Source of the DNA: Escherichia coli
Lineage (GTDB): Bacteria; Pseudomonadota; Gammaproteobacteria; Enterobacterales; Enterobacteriaceae
DNA length: 64,000 nt
NCBI RefSeq assembly: GCF_030013205.1
Contig: NZ_CP122648.1
Direction: 5' to 3' (one strand)
Shown: positions 53,001 through 56,000 of the stretch, piece by piece
Position numbering within the stretch: position 1 is the stretch's first letter
How the letters are laid out: every line of letters begins with the position of its first letter
Program-made: the position numbers

Positions 53001-56000
53001 GGTAATCCGCAGCCGGTTTTTGCCAATACGGAAAAATTGAACGATGCTGTGGAAGAGCTGCGTCTGTTGCTTAATAACCACCATGACCTGAAGGTTGTGG
53101 AAACACCAATCTATGGTTATGTGTGGCTGAACATGGAAACGGCACATCAGCTTGAGTTGCTATCGAGTCTGATTTGCCGGGCCTTGCGCAAATAATTCCT
53201 GAACTTCAGAATCATCTTGCTGCTGCTTCGATTCAGCAAGGATAAAGGGTATGATAGTGAAAAGGGATAAAAGCATTGTCATCTGCGGCAGCTATGAGTA
53301 ATGTTGGCCCTAACGAATAGCGGTTGCTTAAACGAATCCGACTCTCACATTATCAGGGGTATAAAAATGGAAACTACCAAGCCTTCATTCCAGGACGTAC
53401 TGGAATTTGTTCGTCTGTTCCGTCGTAAGAACAAACTGCAACGTGAAATTCAGGACGTTGAGAAAAAGATCCGTGACAACCAGAAGCGCGTCCTGCTGCT
53501 GGACAACCTGAGCGATTACATCAAGCCGGGGATGAGCGTTGAAGCAATCCAGGGCATCATCGCCAGCATGAAAGGTGACTATGAAGATCGTGTTGACGAT
53601 TACATCATCAAAAATGCCGAGCTCTCCAAAGAACGCCGCGATATCTCCAAAAAGCTGAAAGCTATGGGCGAAATGAAAAACGGCGAAGCGAAGTAATTCC
53701 TGTTTTATTCAATGAGGGTTGCCCGGCAACCCTCATTGCTCATTGATTCTTTTCTGTGTATCAAAGTCATCATTCCCATCTGATAACCTATCGAAATTAG
53801 CGACAGACATCTTCTGTATGCAGCAAGGAAAAAAGTTCTGTAACTCCATTGTTATTAACCGCACTGGTTACTAACACGTTGTGCGCTCCAGCTTCCCGTA
53901 ACCAACTTTTCACCAAAGATATTTGTTCCATGCTGGCTAAATCTGCTTTGGTTACTACTCCAATGACCGGGCGATTCATTGACGAGGTAAAGCCTGGCGA
54001 AAAAGGGGACCACGGTGCGTCCGCATTAAGCACCAGGGCGATAATGTCCGCTTCGCAGGCGCTGACCAACAGAGCACTGTAGAGGCTGCGGTTTTCGAGG
54101 TATTCGCCTGGTGTATCAATGGTGGGCGGGGACCAGACGATTGCCTGCGTTTTCTGATAATGAATATTTTCGCCACGCAGACATTGCGTGAGTGACGTTT
54201 TTCCGCACTGGCTGGGGCCGATAAGCATCATACGTTGCATAACGTCAGGTCCGCGTAATGGGGCAGGCGGTAAAGCGCATCATTTCACCCAGCGTACGGG
54301 TAACCTGGCTAAGTGCATATTCAATGGCAGAAACATCACCAGTCAGCACTACGGCACCGGTAAAACGATCAAGAAAACCGATCTCTACAGCGCCTGATTT
54401 TGTGGCGATATCGCATGCGATGATAGATGCTTCGCTGGGGGTTATCGTCAGAATGCCAATAGCAGAAACGGTGTCTGGTAACCCCAATTTCTTAAACAGA
54501 TCCTTCCCAGGATTGGCGATGACATGTGCCAGCGTGACCTGCTTACCAGGGACATATTCCTGAATCATCCGTTCAGTTGTGTGCTGAGTTGTCATTATCC
54601 CTCCACCATCTGACGCCACATGGCTTCATGTGGACGGGCAATCACCGACCGATAGACCAACAAACCTTTTTCTCCCGCACGCTCGCTGGCGACAGAGACC
54701 GCGTTATTAACATCTGAAATATCGCCAGCAACCACCATGTAGCATTTTCCGCCAATGCCAAAAGCCATATGCACGCGAACGAGAATGACATTCGCAGCTT
54801 TGACAGCACAATCGGCAGCGTCAATGCAGGCAGCGACACTCCAGGTTTCGACTACGCCGACAGCCCGGTGCTGCTCAACATGGTTCAGTCCGCTGATTGC
54901 AGAAAGGAGACTGGGATGAATATTCGGCAGGACAAGACTGTCGACCAGCATTTCACCAGCAAGGGAAGCACCGCTGTTGATGGCCTGTTGCACCGCGCCC
55001 ACATCGCCACCGAGCATCAGCAGAAATTTTCCGGGGCATAGCGTTTTGCTGACCAGTAACTCAACGTTTACGCTTTTCAGCATGGCGTCGCCGGTTTCCA
55101 TCCCTTTCGCGATACTGCTAAGTTCTAAAATACCTACCGCTTTCGACATCGTTAACCTCTCACAAGCGTAATTGCGTTTTCTGTCACATCGCTGACCATG
55201 CCATCAATACTGGCATGAATGGGGGCACCTAATGTGCCGTGTGGAATTTGACCTACACATTGCCCATGAACGACGCGATCGCCTTTTTGTACACACGCAA
55301 TTGCGCTGGCACCGATGTGCTGGCGTAACAATAACGTCACTTTTTCGGTCTGAGGCACCTGTTCAGACAATGGCGCATCCTGATACCACGGGGTTAAGCC
55401 AAGTCTGGTTACCAGCCGTTTTACGGGAATCAGTCGATAATTTGCCATGGGATCTGCAGGATTTAAGGTACCTTCGTAACGGAGATTTTGTGCGCGTAAT
55501 TCCTGCTTAAGCAGGCGGTTTATGCGCATTGGTGAAATTCCTACCGGACAGGCGACGCTGGCGCAGACGTTGCACTCCGAACAGGTGAGCGCCGTCAGTA
55601 ACAGTTGTGGCGTAGCGAGCTGTTGGTAGTTAACCGCACGTACTAATAAATGGGGTGCCAGTTCGTGACCGATTAAATGACGTGGGCAGAGATCGGTACA
55701 CAAGCGGCATTGCTCACAAACAGTTTTCGCGACGGCAAGTACGCTGCGGTCATTCTGCATTCGACGTTGGATCAGTGAATGAGAGTTGGGTAAAACCAGC
55801 AAGCCGCCAGTGGTTTTGCTGACGGGGGGGGGGCGAGCGATGTGACCAAACTTCCCATCATCGGCCCGCCATTGATAATACCAGGAGCATCCACAGTTGC
55901 GCCGCCCGCCAGCGCCAGGACTTCACGTAAAGACATGCCGATGGGGACGGTTACCGTTATTGGTTTCGCCACTGCACCATTAACGGTGAGTGTGCGGCGC

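Follow-up and report, generated by a model that had tools for sequence, protein, structure and literature searches.

The pdu operon and the gene tmaR (yeeX) converge in the window, the 64-kb stretch of Escherichia coli DNA that was analysed here (Table 1). Both genes end with TAA, at 53797-53799 on the minus strand for pduV and at 53694-53696 on the plus strand for tmaR. The product of pduV matches TIGR02528 with 186 bits (cut-off 138) and Pfam PF10662 with 186 bits, and its EutP/PduV motifs are intact: the P-loop GxxxxGK[ST], DTPG, and [NT]KxD, which reads TKAD here. A total of 455 PduV homologues were retrieved, and residues G8-T15, D42-G45 and K98/D100 are invariant across the PduV alignment (A1). 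Upstream of pduV on the minus strand, profile matches identify pduU, pduT, pduS, pduQ and pduP.

Table 1. Genes and features around the end of the pdu operon, in positions of the 64-kb window.
Feature	Position	Strand	Description	Basis
tmaR (yeeX)	53367-53696	+	DUF496 PTS regulator, convergent with pduV	NCBIfam NF040881 (188 bits, cut-off 170) and NF003844 (198 bits); annotated tmaR in K_EC180
Spacer between the two stop codons	53697-53796	none	100 bp; single copy, specific to the E. coli clade	Present once in 5417 of 5426 complete E. coli genomes
Palindrome	53710-53738	none	13-bp stem, 3-nt loop	Folding against shuffles
pduV	53797-54240	-	147-aa small GTPase-like microcompartment protein of the EutP/PduV family; intact, ends the operon	
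ATGTCT, vestige of the pduW start (Met-Ser)	53805-53810	-		Short pduV 3′ ends read side by side
pduU	54245-54595	-	Microcompartment shell gene	NCBIfam EutS/PduU-like match and K_EC180 annotation
pduT	54595-55149	-	Microcompartment shell gene	NCBIfam PduT match and K_EC180 annotation
pduS	55152-56497	-	Cobalamin reductase; two ORFs, 55772-56497 and 55152-55802	RnfC-like matches in both halves
pduQ, P, O, N, M, L, K, J, H and the 3′ part of pduG	56494-64000 (window edge)	-		K_EC180 annotation

The window is identical to the swine strain ETEC1748 over 16.1 kb, and it differs from the near-identical genome K_EC180 by three 1-nt indels only, over 30.7 kb. The locus of K_EC180 reads sbcB-dacD-sbmC-yeeA-tmaR, followed on the opposite strand by pduV, U, T, S, Q, P, O, N, M, L, K, J, H, G, E, D, C, B and A. 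Beyond pduA, and outside the end of the window, come pduF, pocR, a cobalamin riboswitch, a hypothetical ORF of 145 aa and cobU-cobS-cobT. The annotation of this pdu locus contains no pduW, no pduX and no cbi genes, including none between pocR and cobU. The 145-aa ORF between the riboswitch and cobU was considered as a possible scar of a cbiA/cbiP fusion; it has no Pfam match.

The initial annotation described a gap of about 100 bp between pduV and yeeX that is devoid of pduW and pduX and carries a strong palindrome, and both parts of this description hold. The gap measures exactly 100 bp; ORF calls find neither an acetate/propionate-kinase nor a GHMP-kinase ORF between pduV and tmaR, and Salmonella PduW and PduX give zero tblastn matches across the whole 64-kb window and in locus L001. 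The palindrome, CAATGAGGGTTGC-CCG-GCAACCCTCATTG, has a perfect stem of 13 bp, and the 111-nt region that contains it folds more stably than its shuffled versions (z = -3.0 for the plus strand, -4.9 for the minus strand). The hairpin is kept in six Escherichia sequences, with 97.4% of its cells paired and two pairs changed on both sides; since 26 of 500 shuffles equalled this result, it lends modest support. No U-run lies beside the hairpin on either strand, the downstream sequence being GCUCAUUGAUUCUUUU for the plus strand and AAUAAAAC for the minus strand. A consensus scan for terminators and promoters likewise found no site in the spacer and no T-run adjoining the hairpin, and an Rfam search of 53200-54400 at E <= 1 returned no family. 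A canonical intrinsic (Rho-independent) terminator combines a G+C-rich hairpin with an immediate U-run, of which the hairpin alone is present here. We infer that this hairpin is likely the shared stop of the convergent tmaR and pdu transcripts; this role goes no further than inference because the U-run is missing and the terminator scan did not call the site. The spacer on its own, considered as a possible repeated or mobile element, occurs in one copy per genome in 5417 of 5426 complete E. coli genomes.

The short-operon layout is already published. Axen, Erbilgin and Kerfeld (2014) defined a subtype PDU1B that has all the pdu genes of PDU1A "except for PduX and PduW" (PMC4207490, Text S1). 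Of the cob operon it includes cobSTU only, and yeeX and yeeA are its neighbours (PMC4207490). Its hosts are E. coli E24377A, LF82 and UMN026 and Shigella sonnei (PMC4207490). For the adherent-invasive (AIEC) strain LF82, the list of pdu genes in an RNA-seq table also ends at pduV (PMC6379400). All four features that define PDU1B are found here. The locus has the PDU1A pdu homologues in operon order from pduA to pduV, lacks pduW and pduX, and has cobUST alone of the cob operon in the vicinity; the neighbours yeeX and yeeA and the E. coli/Shigella host also agree. The genes pduV, U, T, S, Q and P are recognised by profile and those from pduO to pduG by identity to K_EC180, in which cobUST is seen beyond the end of the window. 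Nothing substantive distinguishes the locus of the window from PDU1B.

PDU1A, represented by the pduABCDEGHJKLMNOPQSTUVWX operon of Salmonella enterica and Citrobacter freundii, occupies the same site beside tmaR-yeeA-sbmC and has the same pduA-pduV order, and the Pdu proteins are 53-100% identical. It differs by the presence of pduW (propionate kinase), pduX (L-threonine kinase) and a linked full cbi-cob operon for de novo B12 synthesis. The ending characteristic of PDU1A, with pduW and pduX before yeeX/tmaR, is found in the Salmonella and Citrobacter loci and is absent from the window. The layout of the window is the norm for E. coli and is not new in itself. What the present analysis contributes to the picture of PDU1B are the distribution counts, the presence of the layout in E. 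albertii and E. whittamii, an intermediate of E. fergusonii type, and the nucleotide edges of the missing segment.

The distribution within the species was established by megablast of the segment 53300-54700 against 5426 complete E. coli genomes. The tmaR-spacer-pduV junction is matched in 5417 of them, while the whole pduV-pduU-pduT stretch is found in about 640. Most other genomes, including that of the K-12 derivative XL1-Blue, retain tmaR, the spacer and a stub of 183 bp from the 3′ end of pduV. This junction is thus fixed in the species, in genomes that retain the operon as in those that have lost it. K-12 illustrates the second situation: it shares the tmaR-spacer-pduV 3′ junction, with the 183 bp of pduV annotated as a CDS of the EutP/PduV family, but the remaining operon is gone and genes of the CP4-44 island follow the stub (yeeW, cbtA, cbeA ... 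agn43), whereas the window keeps the whole operon. The K-12 stub beside tmaR is the pseudogene yoeF. In one sampled strain, a pduV stub of 297 bp is joined to the cobUST side.

A search of all complete E. coli genomes for pduW-pduX DNA, with Citrobacter sequence as query, found pduW-like DNA in only one of 5426, strain 48, a deer isolate, where it belongs to another pdu island with IS debris on its flanks. Beyond this island, the nucleotide search of the 5426 genomes revealed no relocated copy of pduW-pduX.

To place the E. coli arrangement among its relatives, an alignment of PduV was used to scan 100,044 species, each represented by one genome, and the 80 resulting loci were searched by tblastn with PduT, PduU, PduV, PduW, PduX, TmaR, YeeA and SbmC. 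Escherichia whittamii, E. albertii and two more representatives labelled E. coli have convergent tmaR 107-115 bp beyond pduV. About 50 other gammaproteobacterial loci have pduV followed by pduW, and all of them except locus L037 also have pduX. These loci belong to about 20 Citrobacter species, Salmonella diarizonae and arizonae, five Klebsiella species, Pseudocitrobacter, Pluralibacter, Phytobacter, Kosakonia, Intestinirhabdus, Entomohabitans, Yersinia, Hafnia, Brenneria, Mangrovibacter, Aeromonas and Tolumonas. For Citrobacter, Salmonella, Phytobacter, Kosakonia, Intestinirhabdus and Entomohabitans, pduW-pduX is followed directly by tmaR-yeeA-sbmC, so that the operon lies at the same chromosomal site as in E. 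coli. The order pduV-pduW-pduX that the initial annotation gave for Salmonella is indeed that of S. enterica diarizonae and arizonae, with convergent tmaR next. Of the two extra Salmonella ORFs, one encodes a kinase of the acetate/propionate family (NF009063, 870 bits) and the other a protein of 300 aa with a GHMP-kinase fold. Clostridial loci also have no pduW or pduX after pduV, and their operons are organised differently.

A contig of E. fergusonii type, which encodes the exact PduV sequence named E. fergusonii by NCBI, provides an intermediate: pduV and pduW are followed by convergent tmaR, then yeeA-sbmC-sbcB, and pduX is absent. By parsimony, pduV-pduW-pduX facing tmaR-yeeA-sbmC is the ancestral enterobacterial state, from which the E. 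coli clade has lost the pair. Given the other gammaproteobacterial loci with pduW-pduX and this intermediate, the short operon is an old, lineage-wide loss. Whether in situ or in a donor, it took place before E. coli, E. whittamii and E. albertii separated. Architecture, distribution and direction of change are established by these comparisons.

The initial annotation had left two readings side by side, a shorter operon specific to the lineage and a deletion of the terminal genes, and had called for comparison with other pdu loci. In all the complete pdu+ E. coli genomes sampled, in the two representatives labelled E. coli, and in E. whittamii and E. albertii, the operon ends at pduV. Operons of relatives with this ending are what the initial annotation itself had named as its refutation, and the architecture is therefore normal. 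The shorter operon is thus confirmed as a property of the lineage; the deletion stands as an ancient event and falls as an event in this strain, given the junction in 5417 of 5426 genomes and in sister species.

The edges of the missing segment can be approached through the short sequences on either side of it. In all loci that bear pduW, the gene begins inside pduV or a few bases after it; in the relatives its start overlaps the last pduV codons (..TC ATG TCT CAC AAA ATA ATG G..). The 3′ ends of pduV, compared by eye over short sequences, read ..TCATGTCTCACAAAATAATGG in Citrobacter and ..GATGTCTGTCGCTAA in E. coli. Similarity ends after ATGTCT, and this hexamer represents, in Escherichia, the vestigial start of pduW and the left edge of the lost segment. 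At the other side, TmaR ends with ..GEAK* in the E. coli clade and with ..GEAKAE* in Citrobacter, Salmonella and the E. fergusonii-type contig; by alignment, tmaR of the E. coli clade is shorter by two codons (6 nt) at its 3′ end. Between these edges, about 2.2 kb of pduW-pduX stand in the relatives where the E. coli clade has the spacer.

Local alignment of the 100-bp spacer with seven relatives, with shuffles as control, revealed no reproducible remnant of pduW or pduX. The best alignments were discarded as chance, their scores lying at or barely above the null and pointing to different genes for different Escherichia species. No homology was found either between the spacer and the pduW-tmaR spacer of the E. 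fergusonii type or the pduX-tmaR spacers of the other relatives. Without a reliable pduW or pduX remnant in the spacer, a simple internal deletion is not demonstrable at the nucleotide level. The segment of ~2.2 kb looks replaced by ~100 bp, as far as these alignments tell, and not merely excised.

The reading that best accounts for these data, and that we regard as very probable, is that of a standard PDU1B locus of Escherichia type, with pduA to pduV abutting convergent tmaR/yeeX, that goes back to an ancient loss of pduW-pduX. On the branch to E. coli/Shigella, E. whittamii and E. albertii, ~2.2 kb would have disappeared from the pdu site, a stretch that begins right behind the start codon of pduW and extends to the two final codons of tmaR. 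It would have been replaced by a spacer of ~100-110 bp, whose hairpin is the probable stop of both convergent transcripts.

The most serious alternative concerns the place of the loss. The short operon could have been imported, already without pduW-pduX, from an unsampled enterobacterial donor and have replaced the yeeA-tmaR-pdu region of the Escherichia ancestor. Several observations speak for it. The YeeA, SbmC and Pdu proteins form three deep and roughly equidistant lineages (E. coli clade, E. fergusonii type, and Citrobacter/Salmonella), and between E. coli and the E. fergusonii-type contig the identities are 77% for YeeA, 79% for SbmC and about 81% for the Pdu enzymes, as opposed to 96% for the adjacent SbcB. 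The divergence of yeeA-sbmC-pdu between these two is about equal to that between E. coli and Citrobacter. The spacer, which has no detectable homology to that of any relative, fits such an import as well. A block of such divergence from yeeA to pdu, beside SbcB at 96%, reflects a history of deep allelic exchange in the region, and at least one Escherichia lineage probably acquired its yeeA-to-pdu version by recombination, to judge from these identities. The loss of pduW-pduX may therefore have occurred in an unsampled donor instead of in situ. However, none of the 80 loci shows pduV next to convergent tmaR outside the E. coli clade among the 100,044 species representatives, and the vestige of the pduW start remains in place, which implies a loss event somewhere on the E. 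coli lineage in any case. Import of an operon that was already short is thus considered rather unlikely.

Far less credible is the opposite polarity, in which the E. coli arrangement is ancestral and pduW-pduX was added in Salmonella, Citrobacter and others. The only point in its favour is that recognisable remnants of the two genes are missing from the spacer, but pduV-pduW-pduX spans Aeromonas, Tolumonas, Yersinia, Hafnia and the Enterobacteriaceae, pduW starts in or near pduV everywhere, and the ATGTCT of its start is kept in E. coli. The two genes would have had to insert together, independently in many genera and each time at one and the same position, and this scenario is strongly disfavoured. 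A recent deletion peculiar to the strain or clone, suggested only by the contrast with the Salmonella reference operon, can be considered refuted and has next to no probability left, as the identical junction and spacer occur throughout the species (5417 of 5426 genomes) and also in sister species, and the 2014 description of the layout already covers E24377A, LF82, UMN026 and Shigella sonnei.

The ancient loss of pduW and pduX may be understood from the functions of their products. PduW and PduX are cytosolic in Salmonella, and PduV is located on the compartment (PMC7181861). PduW converts propionyl-phosphate to propionate with formation of ATP, and PduX begins the aminopropanol-phosphate linker in the de novo synthesis of adenosylcobalamin (PMC7181861; PMC6249242). 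PduX is an L-threonine kinase, and E. coli has only the salvage branch with CobUSTC (PMC6249242). No Pdu enzymes other than PduW and PduX act outside the microcompartment, and in this genetic background both would be dispensable. PduX serves de novo adenosylcobalamin synthesis, a pathway whose 17 cbi genes are likewise missing at the locus. With cbi genes missing and cobUST kept, only corrinoid salvage would remain, and PduX would have nothing to feed, there being no corrin ring pathway. The genes btuCED are annotated in K_EC180.

The reaction of PduW could be covered by the housekeeping AckA (and TdcD). The genome does encode another kinase of the acetate/propionate family, since K_EC180 has ackA-pta annotated at 1645554-1646756, where the chromosome runs opposite to that of K-12, and AckA is 42% identical to Salmonella PduW over the whole length. 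In Salmonella, genetic work has shown that AckA is able to replace PduW. Compensation of the loss of PduW by AckA or TdcD is plausible from these sequences, with ackA, and not tdcD, located in the genome. A further source of activity might be PduV itself, as EutP of Salmonella, which belongs to the same family, has been reported as an acetate kinase (PMC5821096). It is improbable that Escherichia PduV supplies an operon-encoded acyl-phosphate kinase activity that makes pduW dispensable; if it did, ATP would be regenerated at the shell, to which PduV is attached, and not in the cytosol.

Taken as a whole, the comparative picture fits an Escherichia that abandoned the de novo synthesis of B12 but retained a propanediol pathway dependent on salvage, with pduX lost together with cbi, pduW lost where AckA can cover, an intermediate of E. 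fergusonii type, and a pduV stub in nearly all E. coli. As a discovery, the short operon carries little weight, being published and the norm for the species. Its value is one of calibration: the Salmonella operon of 21-23 genes is the wrong reference for E. coli, and missing pduW and pduX should not be flagged as decay by annotation pipelines or readers. The matter has some relevance for studies that treat pdu as a fitness factor of adherent-invasive and other gut E. coli.

A separate observation concerns pduS, whose coding strand has a frameshift in a tract of ten C (55824-55833, G10 on the plus strand), the sole homopolymer of at least 9 bases in the 64-kb window. Typical E. coli read CTCG-ACACACCA-GTCAGC at this place, with 8 nt in the middle. 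The C tract is found instead in a swine-associated set, in which 16 of 644 pdu+ genomes reach 99% identity or more over 141 bp; the members listed or fetched are strains of O139:H1 or with an ETEC name, and further isolates from pigs. In those examined the tract counts 9, 10 or 11 C, and pduS is in frame with C11 only, so that C10 puts the gene of the window out of frame. Annotation agrees, with C11 intact in ETEC4075 and C10 and C9 frameshifted. The tract is common to many assemblies; it could be a slippage-prone on/off switch, or partly a homopolymer sequencing error. K_EC180 has frameshifts annotated in pduS and in pduG, for which assembly errors were considered. At pduG and yoeB, the window has a base more than K_EC180, and in the pduG tract it agrees in length with intact relatives, which suggests that K_EC180 carries homopolymer errors at these two genes.

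Nearly all E. coli that lack the pdu operon retain a 3′ fragment of pduV adjoining tmaR. In most such genomes the stub measures 183 bp, followed in K-12 by genes of the CP4-44 island, while in strain ECE228 it measures 297 bp and is fused to the cobUST side. At least two distinct events have therefore removed the operon within E. coli, both of which left the spacer and hairpin between pduV and tmaR untouched.

Operon ends of other kinds are found at several loci. On the E. fergusonii-type contig L090 (8001-10094), pduV is followed by pduW and then by convergent tmaR, without pduX, which is an intermediate arrangement; the pduW-tmaR spacer is 107 bp long and carries two hairpins, neither of them related to the E. 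coli spacer, and dacD is also absent between sbmC and sbcB. Lability of the terminal pdu genes extends beyond E. coli: the pduW match in one Citrobacter amalonaticus representative (L025) covers only 61% of its length, and an unclassified Enterobacteriaceae genome (L037) has pduW but no detectable pduX. Among complete E. coli genomes, pduW-like DNA occurs only in strain 48 (from deer, 5.94 Mb), whose island (L091) carries a second type of pdu, with PduV 73% identical to that of the window, and ends in pduV-pduW followed by IS66 and IS21 fragments. This island looks horizontally acquired.

Across the yeeA-sbmC-pdu block, the window diverges from the E. fergusonii-type contig L090 as much as from Citrobacter (L010). 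E. coli YeeA shares 77% identity with its E. fergusonii-type counterpart, and the adjacent SbcB 96%. This deep divergence beside a conserved neighbor suggests that the block was recombined or imported long ago in one of the Escherichia lineages.

Features of the window and of comparison loci
Feature	Location	Remarks
IS200C tnpA	window, about 47974-48432	between plaP and sbcB
sbmC, yeeA	window, about 51466-53195	
pduS (cobalamin reductase)	window, 55152-56497	reading frame broken
poly-C tract in pduS	window, 55824-55833	G10 on plus strand, C10 on pduS coding strand
indel sites	window, 63022-63028 (pduG), 44137, 46248	
pduV stub, K-12 derivative	L002, 6498-6680	window 53797-53979
pduV stub, strain ECE228	L003, 6498-6794	window 53797-54095
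145-aa hypothetical ORF	L001, 37951-38388 (past window end)	between cobalamin riboswitch and cobU

Within the operon, pduS is out of frame in the window because of the poly-C tract, which typical E. coli pduS lacks, having ACACACCA (8 nt) at that site. Sequence comparison of sister genomes from pigs gives tract lengths of C9, C10 or C11, of which only C11 yields an intact PduS of 448 aa. Through slipped-strand changes in its length, the tract may switch cobalamin reductase on and off in this lineage, or the variation may partly be homopolymer sequencing error.

The window and the record of the near-identical genome K_EC180 differ solely by three 1-nt indels, at each of which K_EC180 is one base short. 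The pduG and yoeB 'pseudogenes' of K_EC180 are probably assembly errors, because the pduG G-run of the window (G7) equals intact relatives in length (G6 in K_EC180, annotated as frameshifted), and the base missing at 44137 lies in yoeB, likewise marked as frameshifted in K_EC180. The G-run itself is specific to this lineage, other Escherichia having GCGGGAG in its place.

Between plaP and sbcB, this lineage carries an IS200C transposase gene, whereas K-12 and strain ECE228 have the thiosulfate-uptake pair tsuA-tsuB (yeeE-yeeD), which appears to be missing from that position here. Between the riboswitch and cobU, where Salmonella has cbiA to cbiP, the K_EC180 locus L001 has the hypothetical ORF, which had no match in a Pfam search and may be the scar of a cbi deletion.
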